Part shown: positions 31,070 to 38,528 of the stretch, in pieces
Layout: every line of letters begins with the position of its first letter
Position numbering within the stretch: the stretch's first letter is position 1
DNA from: an uncultured Chthonomonadaceae bacterium
GTDB lineage: Bacteria; Armatimonadota; Chthonomonadetes; Chthonomonadales; Chthonomonadaceae
Direction: 5' to 3'
Assembly: GCA_963817895.1 (NCBI GenBank)
Contig: CAWFQB010000004.1
Span: forward strand, 192,001-256,000
Length of the DNA stretch: 64,000 nucleotides
Made by a program: the position numbers and the translations under genes
The notes under the pieces: generated by a model
The model's database searches: none
Seen by the model: only the letters and a program-made list of their open reading frames with translations
Told to the model about the DNA's origin: nothing

Positions 31070-31181
31070 TTGGTGGTTGGTGGCTGGTTAAGCATGTTTG
31101 AACTGTCAATGTGTGTATTCATATCCGCAAGTCCTGCATTGGAACAACCAATCACCAGCCACCAACCACCAATCACCAACA

Positions 31182-31269
31182 TGGAGAGGACAGGATTCGA
31201 ACCTGCGATACCCGAAGGTACTGCGCGTTAGCAACACGCCGCCATCAGCCAGAACTCGGCCACCTCCCC
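31182..31269 (-). tRNA. tRNA-Ser(GCT)
   Basis: Acceptor GGGGAGG/CCTCTCC; loop TTGCTAA; long variable arm; GTTCGAATC. Confidence 0.9.
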
Positions 31270-31393
31270 AGAAAAAGGATGAAGGATGAAGACAGCACGC
31301 GGTTTTCCTGTTCCTTCTTCTGTTTTGGAGATGAGGCTTTTGGAATAGTGTAGTGCCTTCATCCTTCATCCTTCATCCCTCATCCTTTGTAAT

Positions 31394-31455
31394 ATGCCGC
31401 AGGTCCGAGTTGAACGGACGACGTCCACGTTTTCAGCATGGCGCTCTACCACTGA
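31394..31455 (-). repeat. att site: 62-bp duplicate of the 3' part of tRNA-Phe
   Basis: Identical to 35905-35966 except one base; lacks the tRNA 5' end. Confidence 0.95.
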
Positions 31456-31718
31456 ATTTTGAGGCGTCAGGGGTTTAAGTCGGGGCTGCGCGTGGTACAG
31501 TCCTGTGCTGTACATAGGCATGAAGCCTTTTTGTGACTCTACCCATCTATGTCGCTGATAATAGCACCCCATTCTAGCCACTGCCCCGCGAAAGACACAA
31601 GCCGCATGTTTGTACGTCCTCTTGTGTGAACGCAAAGGCGTCTACAAGAAGTATTCTCCATTGGAGAAATGCGGGGTTTTGCAGAAAAAGTGAGGCAAAG
31701 GGCGCAAACGTGGCGGTT

Positions 31719-31734
31719 TGGCATGAATCTTGCA
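31719..31734 (+). promoter_or_regulatory. sigma54 -24/-12 promoter
   Basis: TGGCAT-GAATC-TTGCA about 80 nt upstream of the PEP-CTERM gene. Confidence 0.7.
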
Positions 31735-31814
31735 ATGGGTATAGGAAACGGTAGTCTTTTCGATACCTTCACTGCTTCTATACTTTCATTGGTGTTCACA
31801 AAGGAGACTTCTTC

Positions 31815-32624
31815 ATGCGTTTTTGTAAACTCGCTCTTGGTATGTTTTCACCTGCCCTACTCATTGGTTTCGCCAGCACCTGCGCCCCTGTCCAAGCACA
31901 ACTGCTTGTCGTCTCTGGGGATGAAAACATCACGAATGCACTCGTCGGCAATGGAACTGCCGTCAATGTCGGCAACCAACTCTTCTTCTCCAACGTGCTT
32001 GCCAATGCTCCCGGCAGCAACCGTGTTCTTGTACAGGGGACAGATATCAGCGGATTTGATGCACCTGTCGCCAGCATCAATACGTTCTACAATACGCTTC
32101 CCGGTGTGACCTCTACCATCCAAGCCGGACCTGTAACCGCGGCTTCGTTAAGCGGCGTCAATCTGTTCGTTAGCGCCATTCCCGCCACCGCCTTTACACC
32201 CGCTGAAATCACCGCACTGTCCAACTTCTCCACAGGAGGCGGCTCCATTTTCCTGTTGGGTGACGGAGCAAACTTTGCCCCTGTGCCGGATGCGAACCTC
32301 AATGCTTTATTGGTAGGCCTGGGCAGTTCCCTGCTCATTGTTCCTGATAATCTTGACCCGGGTTTCCAAACGGTTGGCGGATCGCAGATTGCGGCGGGCA
32401 ACCCCTTGACGGCAGGCGTTACCTCCTTCACCTATACCTTCGTTTCACAGGTGTCTGGAGGCACTTCTCTGTTCACAGCATCGGGGGGGCAGACATACAT
32501 CGCCGCCACAGGCATACGCCCAACTGCCGTTCCCGAACCCGGCTCTATCGCCCTCCTCACCGGCCTGAGTCTCACCGGAGCCGCCTTCCTGCGCCGTCGC
32601 AAACACGCTCACGAAGCCGCCTAA
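31815..32624 (+). CDS. PEP-CTERM protein with GATase-like/DUF4350-like domain
   Basis: Signal peptide; FTPAEITAL..F...GGSIFLLGD; C-terminal VPEPGSIALLTGLSLTGAAFLRRRK; AAGGAG RBS. Confidence 0.88.
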   Translation: MRFCKLALGMFSPALLIGFASTCAPVQAQLLVVSGDENITNALVGNGTAVNVGNQLFFSNVLANAPGSNRVLVQGTDISGFDAPVASINTFYNTLPGVTSTIQAGPVTAASLSGVNLFVSAIPATAFTPAEITALSNFSTGGGSIFLLGDGANFAPVPDANLNALLVGLGSSLLIVPDNLDPGFQTVGGSQIAAGNPLTAGVTSFTYTFVSQVSGGTSLFTASGGQTYIAATGIRPTAVPEPGSIALLTGLSLTGAAFLRRRKHAHEAA

Positions 32625-32815
32625 ACGCCCCGCATAGTGAAGCCAAAAGCGTACACAGTCATACAGCCACAGGAACCGCGAACGTGCGGCCTGTGGCTGT
32701 TGTGCGTTGCAGTCTCCCCATTTGGAGAAACTTACCTGCAATGTCTCCTACCTGACGACAGAAGCGGCCTGTTCGCGAACAAGGAACAGGCCGCTGTCAC
32801 CATCGGATACGCGCA

Positions 32816-33367
32816 TCACGGCTCAACAGGCATATCTTTCCATTCGCTTACCACACCGCTTCTGAAAGTGACCGACTTTCGCCCGTATTCCGCATAGTCC
32901 CATTGCTCCGTATAGGTAAAATCGTGTACGGTTTGCGGTTTGCCAAACACGCGCCGTACTTTCTCCATTGCGTCGCCCCGGTGAACAACTTCCTCAGACG
33001 CGGGTTGCGCTGCTGGTTCCTTTTCCGCGCTCCTGCTCACTTTGCTTGCGGACGGCGCGGGCGCTTCGATACGCTGATAGATGATTTTCGGCTTGACGTT
33101 CTTTACAGCTTCAATGTCCTGTGCCAGTTGCTTGTTGTCTTCTTCCAGCGCGGCTATGCGGGCATTGGCGGCGTCCAGTTCGCCTCTCTGCTGTTCAAGG
33201 GCTTGCAATCGGGTTTCCAGCGCGGTGATCCGGTTACGTTCGGCAGGCGATTGTTCCGGGAAAACCTGACCGAAGCGCAATGTCACAAAGCGAGAACCGA
33301 ACATGATGAGAACGAAACTGAAGGAACATAGAAGGATGTAGCGGCCTAACTTACTGTCAAGTTTCAT
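32816..33367 (-). CDS. Membrane-anchored coiled-coil protein with BamE/SmpA-like C-terminal domain
   Basis: N-terminal TM; coiled coil; GDAMEKVRRVFGKP...EQWDY..VTFRSGVV. Confidence 0.6.
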   Translation of the reverse strand: MKLDSKLGRYILLCSFSFVLIMFGSRFVTLRFGQVFPEQSPAERNRITALETRLQALEQQRGELDAANARIAALEEDNKQLAQDIEAVKNVKPKIIYQRIEAPAPSASKVSRSAEKEPAAQPASEEVVHRGDAMEKVRRVFGKPQTVHDFTYTEQWDYAEYGRKSVTFRSGVVSEWKDMPVEP

Positions 33368-33499
33368 GGTTTGCCTCGTGTGTCAAAAGTGAGAAGGAGC
33401 AAACATACGACAGAAGCAACAAAACGCCTCTATCGAGCAGGGAATTGAATCACTGTACCCGATGAAGGCGTAAATTTCGCAGTATACTGTCTCCATTGG

Positions 33500-34770
33500 C
33501 AGGGCCGGCGCATCTTAACTGACGAGAACTTGCTCTAAATAGGCGTTGTCCCATCCGGCTTTCTTCTGCCGGGCCTTGATGCCGCGCTCACAGGTCTTCT
33601 CCTGCCGGATCAGGTTGAGCGCGATGTGGCGCAGAACGGCCATGTTCTCGGCTCCATGCTCTTTGCGGATGCGGCAGGCGTCTTCGTTGAGGCTGACATC
33701 CAGGACATAGTGTAAGCGGTTCTCAATGCCCCAGTGTTGCCGCACCGCTTTGAGAACTTTGCGGGCCTCATGAGGGACACTGCTAATGAAGTAACGCGCT
33801 TCCTCGCTGGTGGTGTCGCCGATGTGGCGGGTGCAGGTGACACGCGCCAGACTGCGCAAGCCTTTCCAGTGCTGCTGCGCGTCGCCCCAACAAAGATCGT
33901 CAAGATCAAGGGTGAGCAGGTCACACCGTCGTATGTCTACACGCCCGTGTCCGCGCCCGCTCGTGGTATGGCAACTATGATTGCAGTCGCGCCAGTGCTT
34001 TTCTTCGGCATAGGCGAAGCGGGCTTGTATATCCTGATGTAGATGAGGCTGATTGTCCTTGACCGCAATCACGTAGTCGCCTCCCTGTTGGACAATCTGC
34101 GCGACCGTTTCGGTCTGGCAGCTCATCGCGACCGTTTCGGTCTGGCAGCTCATCGCGTCCGTGGTGACGATGCAGCCCTTGATGTCGAGCAGATGCAGCA
34201 GGGCGGGAACCATGGGGATTTCGTTGGTTTTCTCTTCAATCTTGAGTTGCCCCAACACCAGACGCGCGCTTGCCGCCCAGGCGCTGACCATGTACATGGC
34301 TTTTTGCCCACACGCCAGATCAAAGCTGTGGCGCAACGCCTTGCCGTCGAGGGCAATGGTCTCGCCTTCGGTAAACTGATGCAGCGTTTGCGTCCACAGC
34401 CGAAAACACGCTTGCAAGGCCGTTGGCTCCAGGCGGGCAAAGACCCGCCGAAACGTGTCTGCCGAGGGGATGCCGTTGGGCAACGCCAGACGTTCTTGCA
34501 GCCACGCTTGCTTGGCAGTCCCAAAAGCGGCCATGTCGTCCCACCCTTCCGCGCCGCACAGCACGGCGCAGATGGCAATCACCAGAATGTCCATTAAGGA
34601 ATGCAGGCGGGTACGTTCCACGCGCGGATCGGGCAAGTCCGACAGGCACTCCACGAGCGTAGGAAAAGCAGACACAGACATCAGGCAGGCTCCTCAAAGA
34701 TGAATGGGGTGCCATTCACCATTGGCGAGACGAGTTCCTGTCTCAAACTATTTTAGATGCGCCGGCCCTG
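33500..34770 (-). mobile_element. ISAs1-family insertion sequence
   Basis: 16-bp perfect TIRs CAGGGCCGGCGCATCT at 33500-33515 and 34755-34770. Confidence 0.92.
33515..34681 (-). CDS. ISAs1-family transposase with 9-aa internal duplication
   Basis: LPDPR, GIPSADTF, IALDGK, TTDAM, VKDNQ and HWGIENRLHYVLDV motifs. Confidence 0.95.
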   Translation of the reverse strand: MSVSAFPTLVECLSDLPDPRVERTRLHSLMDILVIAICAVLCGAEGWDDMAAFGTAKQAWLQERLALPNGIPSADTFRRVFARLEPTALQACFRLWTQTLHQFTEGETIALDGKALRHSFDLACGQKAMYMVSAWAASARLVLGQLKIEEKTNEIPMVPALLHLLDIKGCIVTTDAMSCQTETVAMSCQTETVAQIVQQGGDYVIAVKDNQPHLHQDIQARFAYAEEKHWRDCNHSCHTTSGRGHGRVDIRRCDLLTLDLDDLCWGDAQQHWKGLRSLARVTCTRHIGDTTSEEARYFISSVPHEARKVLKAVRQHWGIENRLHYVLDVSLNEDACRIRKEHGAENMAVLRHIALNLIRQEKTCERGIKARQKKAGWDNAYLEQVLVS

Positions 34771-35789
34771 CGGCTGATCCGCCTTGATTTCGGGCGCGTG
34801 GGTTGGTCCGGGAAATGCAGGTTTTCGCGTCTGTCGGCTTTGCGCATGGGTTCATCGGGCGGCGTCTGGTTCCGTAGAACGGTCAATTCGCTGATGTTGC
34901 GCAGTTGTTCCTCGGACGAATGGCAGTAGATCGCGGTGACAGTCAGGCTGCTGTGTCCCAAGAACGCCTGCACATCCCTGATGTTCGCGCCGCTCCGTAG
35001 CAGGTCGGTGGCCCGCCAGTGACGTATCGAATGGGGTTTGATGTTGTCATGTCCCGCAAGTCCCGCTTGATGTTTTACGTCTTCCACGAGCATCTGCAAA
35101 CTTGTGTGTCCCAAGCGGCGGTTCACATCATACGTGAACAGATAGGGATGCTTGCAGTTGTTGGGACGCAGGGCAAGCCATTCTTTCAGCGCGGCAATGG
35201 CTTCCTCGGGCAGGTAGATTTTCCTTGACTTGCCGCCTTTGCCACTGCGTACCAGCAAGCTGCCCTTGCTCTTACCGTTCTTCGGATCGGGAAGCGTCAC
35301 ATCGTCCAGATGCAGATCGCACAGTTCCGAACGGCGCAAACCGCCATAAACCAGAACGCACAAGACAGCGCGACACAGCGCGACGCGGCGCGGACTGCGA
35401 TTGCGGCGGCAGGCATCGAGAAGAAGCGCGATTTCTTCATCGGTAATCGTCTTGCGAATGGCGGCGTCTTTCTTTGGAAGGGTGACAGTCTTTGCCGGGT
35501 TGTCGGCGATGACACCGTTGCGGATAAGGAATTCTCCCAAGCCTTTCAGCGGGTGAAAGTAACTTCGGATGCTGCGCGGGCGCAATCCCTTGCCGCTCAA
35601 GTAGTAGAGGAAGCGGCGGCAAACGGGCGGGTTGAAGTCGCTTAATGTCGGTTCCGGGTAGCCGTTTTCCGTCAGCCAGGTGTGGAAGTGGCGTAACTGC
35701 GCCCCGTAGCCTTTCTGCGTGGTCGCCGCTGCGCCTTGTTCGACGCGCAGGGCTTGCAGGTAGTCGTGAATGAGAGTGTCCAGTTGCAT
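34743..35789 (-). CDS. Tyrosine recombinase/integrase
   Basis: N-terminal SAM-like domain; GLRRSEL (R), KGGK (K), HSIRH, LGHS and TAIY catalytic residues. Confidence 0.95.
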   Translation of the reverse strand: MQLDTLIHDYLQALRVEQGAAATTQKGYGAQLRHFHTWLTENGYPEPTLSDFNPPVCRRFLYYLSGKGLRPRSIRSYFHPLKGLGEFLIRNGVIADNPAKTVTLPKKDAAIRKTITDEEIALLLDACRRNRSPRRVALCRAVLCVLVYGGLRRSELCDLHLDDVTLPDPKNGKSKGSLLVRSGKGGKSRKIYLPEEAIAALKEWLALRPNNCKHPYLFTYDVNRRLGHTSLQMLVEDVKHQAGLAGHDNIKPHSIRHWRATDLLRSGANIRDVQAFLGHSSLTVTAIYCHSSEEQLRNISELTVLRNQTPPDEPMRKADRRENLHFPDQPTRPKSRRISRRAGASKIV

Positions 35790-35905
35790 GTTGGGCTGCC
35801 TTTCAGAGTGCTTAAAGACAGCGACATAGCGGGGTAGAGCGGTGACTTAAACCCGCAACGCGCACAGGTAGGACAAAGTCCTGTACCTATGCGCCATGCT
35901 CAAAA

Positions 35906-35977
35906 TGCCGCAGGTCCGAGTTGAACGGACAACGTCCACGTTTTCAGCATGGCGCTCTACCACTGAGCTACTGCGGC
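35906..35977 (-). tRNA. tRNA-Phe(GAA)
   Basis: Cloverleaf; anticodon arm ccatg-CTGAAAA-cgtgg. Confidence 0.9.
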
Positions 35978-36025
35978 GTACCTACCTGTTTCCTAAAATC
36001 TTAGAACCCTAACACCCTAACCCCA

Positions 36026-36096
36026 TGCGCCCGGAAAGAATCGAACTTTCGTCGCGCGGTTATCAGCCGCGTGCTTTCCCATTAAGCTACGAGCGC
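36026..36096 (-). tRNA. tRNA-Ile(GAT)
   Basis: cgcgg-CTGATAA-ccgcg. Confidence 0.9.
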
Positions 36097-36100
36097 AAAA

Positions 36101-36172
36101 CTCCCCCGGCTGGATTCGAACCAGCAACCGTTCGGTTAACAGCCGAATGCTCTACCATTGAGCCACAGAGGA
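36101..36172 (-). tRNA. tRNA-Asn(GTT)
   Basis: ttcgg-CTGTTAA-ccgaa. Confidence 0.92.
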
Positions 36173-36274
36173 TCAGAAACGGAAACGCAATTACCTCACC
36201 CCGGGCGTCCACCCGAAGGGAAGGACACCCCTCTCCTTGCCGCTCCTTCGTCACCAAAAGAGGGGCTTTTTGTA

Positions 36275-36345
36275 TCCTCATTCCCGTGTTTGAATCGGGT
36301 TCAACCCCTTATAAGGAGGCCGCTCTACCCATGAGCTAAACGAGG
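36275..36345 (-). tRNA. tRNA-Ile(TAT), atypical T-arm
   Basis: Acceptor CCTCGTT/AATGAGG-A; gcctc-CTTATAA-ggggt; A:A mismatch closing the T-stem. Confidence 0.7.
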
Positions 36346-36400
36346 CGCTCAATTCCTACGAACAACCAAACTGTCACAACGCACATTTACCAACATATCA

Positions 36401-36473
36401 GGCGAGAGACGGGATTCGAACCCGCGACCTTTTCGATGGCAACGAAACGCGCTTCCAATTGCGCCACTCTCGC
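36401..36473 (-). tRNA. tRNA-Gly(GCC)
   Basis: tttcg-TTGCCAT-cgaaa; discriminator C rather than U. Confidence 0.85.
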
Positions 36474-36571
36474 ATATTGCAGGGAGTAGGGGATAGGCAG
36501 TAGGGAGTAGACCTGTACTGTAATATCCTGTCTTTCCTATTCACCACTCCCCACTCTCTACTCCCTACCCA

Positions 36572-36644
36572 TGCCCCCGGCAGGAATCGAACCTGCTGTC
36601 TTCACGTCCGAAGCGTGACGCCGTTTCCAGTTGACTTCAGAGGC
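36572..36644 (-). tRNA. tRNA-Arg(TCG)
   Basis: tcacg-CTTCGGA-cgtga; A20 after the D-loop GG. Confidence 0.85.
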
Positions 36645-36665
36645 ACATTCAACCACAACAACCAG

Positions 36666-36739
36666 TGCGCAAGGCAGGATTTGAACCCGCAGCCGTTTCT
36701 TTGTAAGAGAGCCGCTCCACCGGATTGAGCTACTCGCGC
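36666..36739 (-). tRNA. tRNA-Val(TAC), weak anticodon stem
   Basis: gctct-CTTACAA-agaaa (2 mismatches); good acceptor, D and T arms. Confidence 0.7.
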
Positions 36740-36795
36740 TTATTGAGTGAGAGTGAGAGAAAATGCGGCTTGTTCTCTCACTCTTCACTTTTCTA

Positions 36796-36867
36796 TACGG
36801 AGGACGGGAGTCGAACCCGCGTTTTGTCCTTGAAAGAGACGCCTCCTGACCGTTAGAGGACCCCCGC
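36796..36867 (-). tRNA. tRNA-Glu(TTC)
   Basis: gtct-CTTTCAA-ggac. Confidence 0.85.
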
Positions 36868-36885
36868 GCAGCACACAACAAATTA

Positions 36886-36956
36886 TCGGGGTAACAGGAA
36901 TCGAACCTGTGACAGATAGGCCCAAGCTATCCGTTATACCATTTCACTACACCCCG
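36886..36956 (-). tRNA. tRNA-Pro(TGG)
   Basis: CGGGGTG acceptor; gatag-CTTGGGC-ctatc. Confidence 0.88.
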
Positions 36957-36967
36957 TTTTGCGCCCA

Positions 36968-37039
36968 GGCCGACGAGCGGATTTGAACCGCTGACCTGCT
37001 GTTTACGAAACAGCTGCTCTACCTCTGAGCTAAGTCGGC
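36968..37039 (-). tRNA. tRNA-Thr(CGT)
   Basis: gctgt-TTCGTAA-acagc. Confidence 0.92.
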
Positions 37040-37088
37040 GCTTGAAGAGAGTTTACAGATGATAGTTGATTCACTATCGGACACATTC

Positions 37089-37227
37089 TTGCCAGGGGTT
37101 GAAAACCCCTGTCTACATGGCCTGCGGCCAAGCGTCCTTCGGACGCAAATGCTTGTTTACAAATTCTCGCGTCCGAAGGACGCTTGGCCGTAGGCCACTC
37201 AGACGGGTATTTTCAATGCCCGGTAAA
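37089..37227. repeat. Long imperfect palindrome (REP/MITE-like) inside the tRNA array
   Basis: tggcctgcggccaagcgtccttcggacgc / gcgtccgaaggacgcttggccgtaggcca inverted pair with outer imperfect arms. Confidence 0.8.
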
Positions 37228-37301
37228 ATGTGTCCAGTAGTGAAATAGTTGATAAACACGCGCCTTTCCTATCAACTAATAACCATCAACTTCTTAGCGG
37301 A

Positions 37302-37375
37302 TGCCAATCGGGGGATTCGAACCCCCAACACGTTAGTTCTGAACCAACGGCCTCTACCAGTTGGGCTAGATCGGC
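37302..37375 (-). tRNA. tRNA-Leu(CAG) with short (5-nt) variable loop
   Basis: gttgg-TTCAGAA-ctaac; variable region gtgtt; A73. Confidence 0.8.
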
Positions 37376-37404
37376 GTCTTCCCTCCTCTTTTCCGTTTAT
37401 CAAA

Positions 37405-37476
37405 CAGGGGCGGCAGGATTCGAACCCGCAACAGATGGTTTTGGAAACCATGGCTCTACCGTTGAACTACACCCCT
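37405..37476 (-). tRNA. tRNA-Trp(CCA)
   Basis: atggt-TTCCAAA-accat. Confidence 0.92.
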
Positions 37477-37585
37477 TCGTCGGTATTCGGTGTTCGGTAT
37501 TCGGAACTACAGGACAGGAGCTTTATAGTGCATAGAAGGCTTTTGACTGAATACCGAATACCGAACACCGAATACCGTTTCTGCA

Positions 37586-37658
37586 TGGAAGCGAGAGGAT
37601 TCGAACCTCCAACTCTTTGCTTAAAAGGCAAATACTCTGACCGTTGAGTTACGCTTCC
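37586..37658 (-). tRNA. tRNA-Lys(TTT)
   Basis: tttgc-CTTTTAA-gcaaa. Confidence 0.92.
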
Positions 37659-37743
37659 GAAGAAGTTGAGAGTTGATAGTCCATAGTTGATAGTAAAATT
37701 CTCCGACTATCAACTATCAACTACAAACTATCAACTCTCCCCA

Positions 37744-37816
37744 AGCGCCGGGTCGGAGTTGAACCGACACAATACGGCTTTGCAGACCGCTCCCTTAACC
37801 GTTCGGGCACCGACGC
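37744..37816 (-). tRNA. tRNA-Cys(GCA)
   Basis: gcggt-CTGCAAA-gccgt; U73. Confidence 0.9.
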
Positions 37817-37859
37817 GAAACAAACACAAACTTGTATATGCAGTTATCAAGGTACAAAA

Positions 37860-37933
37860 TGGGGATGGGAGGACTCGAACCTCCGGCCTTCACCTTCGCA
37901 GAGTGACGCGCTAATCCACTGCGCCACATCCCC
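37860..37933 (-). tRNA. tRNA-Arg(GCG)
   Basis: tcact-CTGCGAA-ggtga; A20 present; perfect acceptor and T stems. Confidence 0.85.
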
Positions 37934-37971
37934 AAACTCTCACTCTCCACTCTCACTCTTCACTTCTCAAA

Positions 37972-38043
37972 CGCGCTCGACGAGAGTTGAACTCGCTTCT
38001 TCTGCTCGACAGGCAGGCATGTTGACCGGTACACCACAAGCGC
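37972..38043 (-). tRNA. tRNA-Asp(GTC), first gene of the array
   Basis: ctgc-CTGTCGA-gcag; G73. Confidence 0.88.
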
Positions 38044-38142
38044 AGGAGAGGCATCAGGCATTAATATTAGGTAGTAGCTAAAAGCCACAAGACACGAGAG
38101 ACAAGTTGAAAACCCAACACCGAACAAACGAGCAATTCAGCC

Positions 38143-38182
38143 AAAAAAAGCCCACTGTGCCTTTGGAGTTGGGACAGTGGGC
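38143..38182 (-). terminator. Intrinsic terminator in the tRNA-array leader
   Basis: GCCCACTGT(CCC)...(GGC)ACAGTGGGC stem followed by T7 on the minus strand. Confidence 0.85.
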
Positions 38183-38311
38183 GAAGAATTCGCGCTGGTT
38201 GAGGAAACGGTTAAGCGTCTCCTCCTGTCCCAACAAGGCATTTGCAATTATTGCCACAACCGCGCAGGCCAATACTATCCATCAGGCGCGGGCAGGCAAG
38301 ACGTATCTCAT
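38168..38311 (-). promoter_or_regulatory. Putative attenuator: uORFs MRYVLPARA (38282-38311) and MDSIGLRGCGNNCKCLVGTGGDA (38211-38282) plus antiterminator
   Basis: GTTGGGACAG (38234-38225) is perfectly complementary to CTGTCCCAAC (38177-38168) in the terminator 5' arm and loop. Confidence 0.55.
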
Positions 38312-38528
38312 CGTTACAACTCGGAATCGCGAGCTGCGTTTGCCATTTGCGTCTGCGGCCTGTCTGCGGTTGTCGGTTGGTTTCAAACATTGTGTGCTTG
38401 CCTGATCCTCAAAATTGCGTTTGTTTGGCGCGGTTCGTTTTGTATTTTCCGTTTCCGCGTCCTTCACACCTATTGATTGGATTGCGCGGAGATTAGTTGC
38501 ACCCTCTTGAAAAGAAATTTTGAGCCAC

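Follow-up and report, generated by a model that had tools for sequence, protein, structure and literature searches.

Introduction

In mycobacteria, general translation stress is sensed by the whiB7 leader through transcription attenuation that a uORF (upstream open reading frame) mediates (PMC10274678). The whiB7 uORF is long, variable in sequence and contains most amino acids; its efficient translation leads to termination and its stalling leads to an antiterminator (PMC10274678). The leader described here, which precedes an array of tRNA genes in an uncultured Chthonomonadaceae bacterium, has a uORF of the same kind and is predicted to follow the same logic. It differs in its target, which for whiB7 is the mRNA of a transcription factor and here is a set of tRNA genes, and the whiB7 uORF is enriched in Ala (PMC10274678). 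The features kept here are a Phe codon near the start of the ORF and a stop codon located at the antiterminator rod's tip, and no sequence homology was seen between the two leaders.

The amino acid attenuators trpL, hisL and pheM have a two-state logic in which a ribosome at the stop codon covers the antiterminator strand. Unlike them, our leader has no run of control codons, its ORF is three to four times longer and its target is tRNA. The trpL attenuator is also treated together with bmrB-bmrCD of Bacillus subtilis (PMC4191407), which resembles our locus in ORF length (bmrB, 53 amino acids) and in having a terminator and an antiterminator; however, the bmrB terminator sits within the ORF and an anti-antiterminator is predicted (PMC4191407). 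The vmlR ORF, again unlike ours, is only 3 codons long and is also accompanied by an anti-antiterminator (PMC9226507). Both bmrB and vmlR are induced by ribosome antibiotics and have a second layer of control at the promoter, features that are predicted for our locus, but they act on resistance proteins and not on tRNA genes (PMC4191407, PMC9226507).

The mechanisms by which tRNA genes are differentially regulated are described as largely unknown (PMC8421152). The L-array or trn operon of Anabaena PCC 7120 is, like our array, a long same-strand series of mostly redundant tRNA genes (PMC8421152), and in both cases there are associated HNH, rtcB, slipin (SPFH) and AAA genes and a presumed induction by translation stress (PMC8421152, PMC10272220). 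In Anabaena, HNH and rtcB are co-induced with the trn operon (PMC8421152) and the HNH, rtcB, slipin and AAA genes are targets of TrcR (PMC10272220). This RHH repressor, together with direct repeats over a sigma-70 promoter, sets the Anabaena operon apart from our locus; it is the one solved case and is described as restricted to cyanobacteria (PMC10272220). The words attenuat-, terminator and leader are absent from PMC8421152, and attenuat- and terminator from PMC10272220. In the mostly open-access literature that was covered (including PMC4758250, PMC7778990 and PMC4695836 by term search), leader-ORF control of tRNA genes was not found. Attenuation of this type is known for antibiotic-response genes and was not found in print for tRNA genes.

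The tRNA array and its inserted element

The window is the whole analyzed stretch of 64,000 nucleotides. Its genome is called G000 here, and G001 and G002 are congeners (genus g1). The array region contains the following features:

35906..38044, minus strand: array of 16 tRNA genes from Asp to Phe, most of which duplicate dispersed genes
31395..35905, minus strand: 4.5-kb element integrated at tRNA-Phe, without counterpart in the G001 array
35789-34743, minus strand: tyrosine integrase within the tRNA-Phe element
34681-33515, minus strand: ISAs1-like DDE transposase within the tRNA-Phe element
31181..31270, minus strand: tRNA-Ser(GCT); the G001 array continues into Ser(GCT) and five more genes

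The array is a long, same-strand run of supernumerary tRNA genes, as is typical of an L-array (Santamaria-Gomez 2021). Further marks of L-arrays are a patchy distribution with spread by horizontal transfer, and silence during growth with induction under translation stress. In the G000 assembly, which is 81% complete, clear dispersed copies exist for 13 of the 16 array anticodons, one copy is doubtful and two anticodons have none; no dispersed tRNA-Phe was called. The same array locus is found in G001, where it holds 22-23 tRNA genes. The inserted element also has a few small genes inside and closes with a partial, near-identical tRNA-Phe copy (31465-31395); the integrase is found at the same site in G002 and not in G001. 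The tRNA-Ser(GCT) gene is probably the tail of the array, severed by the element.

Two rare species, tRNA-Arg(GCG) at 37859-37934 and tRNA-Ile(TAT) at 36275-36345, are included in the array, and Arg(GCG) is a marker of related arrays in the phylum at large. A palindromic repeat of 200 nt (37050-37250) splits the array between tRNA-Leu and tRNA-Thr, and short tandem repeats occupy other spacers.

The terminator and the antiterminator

The following features lie directly upstream of the array:

38225..38234, minus strand: antiterminator helix, 5' strand; leader ORF codons 53-56; 10 Watson-Crick pairs
38201..38224, minus strand: apical hairpin of the antiterminator rod, 9 bp, from folding
38168..38177, minus strand: 3' strand of the antiterminator, equal to the upper 5' arm and loop of the terminator, from folding
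38143..38182, minus strand: intrinsic terminator with a 9-bp stem, a 15-nt loop and T7, from inspection of the stem and T-run and from folding
38125..38134, minus strand: boxA-like element directly after the terminator, conserved in three genomes

An earlier note on this DNA had placed an intrinsic terminator about 100 nt before the first tRNA, and this was confirmed: the stem (38182-38174 with 38158-38150) is a perfect 9 bp, T7 occupies 38149-38143, and tRNA-Asp (38044) lies 99 nt downstream on the same strand. A generic scanner missed this terminator because its 15-nt loop is above the limit of the program. It is the single hairpin of its sequence family in G000 under the exact pattern.

The same note had described a 10-nt segment complementary to the terminator, and 38234-38225 does pair with 38177-38168 in 10 of 10 Watson-Crick pairs. 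A perfect 10-mer complement arises by chance in 0.28% of 5000 leader shuffles, and a 7-nt core of the 5' strand is invariant in G000, G001 and G002. The 216-nt region has a fold z of -4.55 with the antiterminator as its minimum free energy structure. The apical hairpin is stacked on the antiterminator helix and its loop (38215-38210) contains the stop codon of the leader ORF. The computed antiterminator excludes the terminator and overlaps a leader ORF, and a terminator lies between a putative promoter and the array in 17 arrays.

One could argue that the hairpin merely ends the transcript of the gene at 38969-38529, which is on the same strand, and that the array has its own promoter in the 99-nt gap of G000. 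This explanation is hardly credible. The upstream genes differ among the three genomes, the 38969-38529 gene being found upstream in neither G001 nor G002, and therefore the hairpin is not the end of that gene. As for a downstream promoter, the scanner called none at the terminator or in the 38143-38044 gap, and the gap itself is not conserved: in 8 of 17 homologous arrays a mere 6-33 nt separate the terminator from the first tRNA, which leaves no room for a promoter of the array's own.

No riboswitch or T-box model was found with Rfam at the gathering score in the window or in 16 related loci, and below the threshold there were two chance-level matches only (E 1.7-1.9); by this measure the leader belongs to neither the T-box nor the metabolite riboswitch class. 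The element at 38134-38125, which we liken to the boxA of rrn operons, has a second counterpart inside the array (37854-37840). Both are kept in the congeners and may protect the read-through transcript.

The leader ORF

Three further features precede the antiterminator:

38455..38469, minus strand: conserved leader 5' end, identical in three genomes
38211..38390, minus strand: 59-codon leader ORF with its stop at 38213-38211; same ATG in G000, G001 and G002
38282..38311, minus strand: 9-codon uORF1 of the earlier note, rejected as a part of the system; not conserved

A search of 61 genomes found the locus in the two congeners. Invariant among the three genomes are the promoter-like element and the 5' end of the leader, then the ORF's initial three codons (from 38390), the core of the antiterminator, the terminator and the boxA-like 10-mer. 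From the shared ATG the ORF has 59 codons in G000, 59 in G002 and 56 in G001; it begins with Met-Phe-Glu and finishes with Gly-Thr-Gly-Gly-Asp-Ala, and its middle is divergent. The peptide matches no Pfam or NCBIfam family above the cut-off and the Shine-Dalgarno sequence is median. Selection on the peptide is weak between G000 and G002 (pN/pS 0.32/0.39), and in 19% of trials chance alone keeps the frame open. The ORF may be translated, as its kept start, frame and stop position and the in-frame Phe described below indirectly suggest.

The sensor had earlier been proposed to consist of a 9-codon uORF coupled by TGATG to a 23-codon uORF. Both ORFs exist in G000, and G001 has in-frame internal ATGs, but the 23-codon uORF is the tail (from Met37) of the 59-codon ORF that starts at 38390, and neither ORF nor the overlap is present in G001 or G002, where the conserved ATG is that at 38390. 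In addition, a ribosome placed at the uORF1 stop leaves the predicted fold unchanged. We thus consider two coupled uORFs a very improbable sensor. The uORF1 frame read as a second ORF with an internal TGA resembles an ORF in G002; it is closed in G001 and extends into the terminator, and was rejected. Also rejected was the idea of the peptide as a "pan-codon sampler": in G000, amino acid and codon diversity is no higher than in genes or shuffles used as controls (P 0.49 and 0.14), and it exceeds the controls in just 2-3 of 20 leaders.

The putative promoter

38466..38503, minus strand: ECF-type promoter-like block, from congener conservation; -35 element at 38503-38496, -10-like element at about 38480-38473

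The earlier note saw no promoter and neither did the scanner; comparison of the congeners, however, reveals a promoter-like block at 38503-38470 that is invariant in G001 and G002 despite their different upstream genes. We infer a transcription start near 38470. The g1 block reads GCAAC, 16-18 nt, then (G/A)TC, and presumably belongs with ECF promoters, which it resembles. It matches 4 of 68 genomes of the order, always before a tRNA cluster. A related motif precedes an HNH gene in four genomes and rtcB in three, and the g1-type motif is also found before Ro60 in G000 and before one metagenome cluster. The loose promoter pattern gives 56 matches in G000 against 57 in the control and does not discriminate alone; because it is not enriched genome-wide, a promoter role is inferred from conservation. 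In G000 the housekeeping tRNA genes have TTGACA/TATACT promoters, and so do the leaders of family f6.

The leader had first been viewed as an RNA-only switch. For this genus such a view does not hold, as there is a conserved ECF-like promoter upstream that is common to HNH, rtcB and Ro60 genes.

Related leaders in the phylum

The arrays are patchy in the phylum sample, a tRNA-Arg(GCG) query giving matches in 14 of 401 genomes. Nine of these (two of g1 and all seven of f6) combine a promoter with an ORF and with a terminator whose stem starts alike; the others comprise one 3-gene cluster with a promoter alone, three single genes and one array directly after a protein gene. A terminator-derived pattern gave 68 matches in 52 of the 401 genomes. 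Fifty-seven were examined and sorted by downstream content, giving 17 tRNA arrays, of which one breaks off behind the first tRNA, a Ro60 gene recognized by Pfam, a distant Ro60-like gene, a fragment of a P-loop gene, seven genes of the HNH type and 24 others, which served as controls. The arrays, Ro60, Ro60-like and P-loop leaders form a set of 20 from 16 genomes of families f1, f6 and f42. The seven HNH leaders were excluded, as their stops vary (-8 to -28, one with none), although they do show a pairing.

All 20 leaders have an ATG-initiated ORF of 32-85 codons with a stop 18-35 nt before the terminator, so the ORF position is kept in homologous leaders, a check that had been proposed for the original locus. 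The same layout occurs in 5% of shuffles, or 35% with a wide window and any start. In 19 of 20 leaders the nascent RNA folds into a rod in which the terminator arm has its partner over 30 nt upstream, versus 5 of 24 controls and 25% of shuffles, and the fold z of the leaders is -2.69 versus -0.54. The stop codon is at most 1 nt from a loop in 16 of 20 (21% expected). Each leader's own terminator arm is preferred over differing arms in 18 of 20, versus 13 of 24 controls. Covariation, which had also been proposed as a check, thus receives a divided answer: the cross-pairing speaks for it, but RNAalifold on a MAFFT alignment of the 20 leaders, which align poorly, gives 0 consensus pairs. A plain best-duplex test over 200 nt is weak (6 of 27 at p<=0.05, versus 3 of 25). 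The -18 to -35 window and the pattern were picked after inspection of the data and relatives are not independent, and therefore the p-values overstate the significance.

With a looser pattern, seven more array leaders were later found in five f6 genomes, representing three related types within one genus. All seven have an ORF of 28-35 codons, a stop 21-33 nt before the terminator and an early Phe, and such an ORF is present in 1 of 14 non-array matches of this pattern. With the strict threshold for arm pairing (6 of 8) three of the seven qualify, and with a looser one (5 of 8) six.

A Phe codon lies within codons 2-8 in 20 of 20 leaders (19 of 20 if a more upstream ATG is used in G001), compared with 26% of 1307 control genes; the other two frames have one in 11 of 20 each. 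From these sequences, the leader peptide appears largely free to vary, with the position of the stop and the early Phe codon kept.

The early Phe codon, or else the Cys codons, could be taken as a dedicated sensor of an amino acid or antibiotic, as in pheM or trpL. The Phe codon is present in frame in all 27 leaders, the array encodes a tRNA-Phe for which no dispersed gene was called in G000, and the leader ORFs of genus g89 have pN below pS. Yet there are only one or two Phe codons, 45-50 codons away from the switch; the cluster of codons for one amino acid before the antiterminator that is the hallmark of amino acid attenuators was not found in the leaders; and many of the arrays show no tRNA-Phe in the stretch that was looked at. 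The Phe codon could instead have a role in initiation. The Cys codons, which the earlier note had suggested as the signal, number 0-5 across the 20 leaders and are not conserved; two of its three, Cys49 and Cys51, are beyond the switch point, where a stalled ribosome would, by folding, already favor termination. We therefore regard a dedicated amino acid or antibiotic sensor as quite unlikely.

Outside the phylum sample, the terminator pattern has 27 loci in viral contigs, none before a tRNA. Among the matches listed from a genome collection, 1 of 129 lies before tRNAs (L128, not counted as independent) and an ORF with pairing occurs in 14 of 129, which we take as background. A metagenome scan with the tRNA-Arg(GCG) pattern gave no new attenuator in 31 loci, of which 20 are without tRNA calls; most arrays are cut before their start.

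Two Latescibacterota loci (L154:600-730 and L200:600-730) share the terminator stem and have a 49-codon ORF whose end lies 23-24 nt ahead of it, a strand resembling an antiterminator, and a methyltransferase-like gene downstream; they may be members outside the phylum or background. Four arrays (L289, L292, L298 and L300) are rich in Leu, Gln and Asn tRNAs and their leader ORFs are rich in the same codons, a possible codon-matched subtype.

Folding with and without a ribosome

In the nascent G000 RNA, with a 3' end at 38166-38155, the antiterminator has a probability of 1.0. The full transcript is bistable, with a terminator probability of 0.00-0.41 over six assumed 5' ends. A ribosome footprint at codon 49-50 or later raises this to 0.79-1.0, and at the stop of the leader ORF to 0.97-1.0; at codons 6-47 it is 0.07-0.41, except for one sampled position with 0.67, and at codon 2 about 0.9. 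Folding of the nascent RNA, which the earlier note had suggested, thus gives the antiterminator first and the terminator once the ribosome passes codon 49-50. The logic proposed there, in which a finishing ribosome masks the antiterminator and the array stays off, agrees with the folding in G000 and with the layout in 20 + 7 leaders; its two coupled uORFs, its Cys signal and the RNA-only view have to be given up.

The ribosome position sets the fold in the predicted direction in G000 and G002 and, at equilibrium, not in the other 18 leaders. In these 18 the naked full-length RNA has a terminator probability of 0.89-1.0, the terminator state being 2.7-13.8 kcal/mol below the antiterminator (95-nt window), and therefore the model needs kinetic trapping in them. 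With a static ribosome mask at the stop, the basal helix can still form in most of those leaders.

Another option is that the ORF is a stand-alone small gene with its own terminator and that the array is expressed at a fixed low level, by leak-through or by antitermination of the Nus type acting at the boxA-like element, and that the ECF promoter alone provides the stress control. The preference for the terminator at equilibrium in 18 of 20 leaders agrees with this, as do the conserved boxA-like site and an ORF-to-terminator spacing that is ordinary for any small gene. The arrays of G003, L258/L282 and L264 have an ECF-like promoter and no terminator, and therefore promoter control alone does exist. 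However, the peptides are unrelated between groups while base pairing with the arm and loop of the terminator covaries in 18 of 20, the stop is at the rod tip in 16 of 20, and the housekeeping TTGACA promoters of f6 would leave the leader as the sole control. Based on these points we consider the stand-alone gene unlikely.

A model for the control of the array

The explanation that fits best, to which we give a probability of about 0.8, is that a ribosome-mediated attenuator of the whiB7/bmrB type would open the spare tRNA array under translation stress, in the place of TrcR. Transcription would start near 38470 at the ECF-like promoter. As the RNA grows, the 5' arm of the terminator is predicted to be sequestered in the basal part of a long rod; the last part of the 59-codon ORF forms the 5' side of this rod and the stop codon lies at its tip, so that naked RNA would read through. 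A ribosome that follows the polymerase, given the coupling of transcription and translation that we assume for this phylum, would melt the rod at codon 49-50 or beyond; in the computed folds this releases the terminator, and the array would be off. If initiation failed, or if translation were blocked in the first ~48 codons, for example by ribosome antibiotics or by cleaved or uncharged tRNA, the rod would stay intact and the 16 tRNA genes would be transcribed.

If true, control by a leader ORF of this kind would account for the silence and the switching-on of long tRNA arrays outside the cyanobacteria. It would be a direct feedback from failing translation to more tRNA that needs no protein as regulator and can move together with the array. 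The element measures 330 nt, with precise predicted switch points and 27 natural variants.

The other targets (Ro60, HNH, and SPFH and RlaP inside arrays) would fit translation stress and overlap with the TrcR regulon, as far as it is described in PMC10272220. A wider reading is that attenuators across the phylum, fixed only in the early Phe and the rod-tip stop, act as a peptide-independent sensor of translation failure on a whole repair regulon (spare tRNA arrays, Ro60, HNH, SPFH and RlaP) and are an independently reached, RNA-level equivalent of TrcR. We hold this reading tentatively, as slightly closer to doubtful than to probable.

Other genes behind similar leaders

The f6 arrays carry SPFH and RlaP genes. 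An SPFH query gave nothing in five g89 genomes. RtcB was not found in G000 (81% complete). The Ro60-like protein of L093 has no Pfam match and is assigned by BLASTP only (E 8e-7).

In genus g1, the promoter of an HNH gene (G000:C5:95293-95690, L251; L249, L250) is of the same type and the terminator is conserved; the leader ORF of this gene extends into the terminator or past it (90 codons in G000), which is a different logic. HNH genes in families f16 and f25 (L080-L082, L085-L088) have a TTGACA promoter, a leader and a terminator of the same family with a variable stop. At L092:1560-2800, the attenuator and the Ro60 gene are separated by ~1.2 kb of structured non-coding DNA, which has a long tRNA-like match at 2495-2625 and is a candidate for Y RNA or tRNA-like elements. 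In L032:1-1860 the array directly follows a putative RtcB gene (identified by eye), with no terminator between. In both congeners rtcB appears as two distant matches (L254, L256, G001:C2:4975199-4978432; L253, L255); that of G001 is split inside a 1188-aa open frame, possibly by an intein or an insertion.
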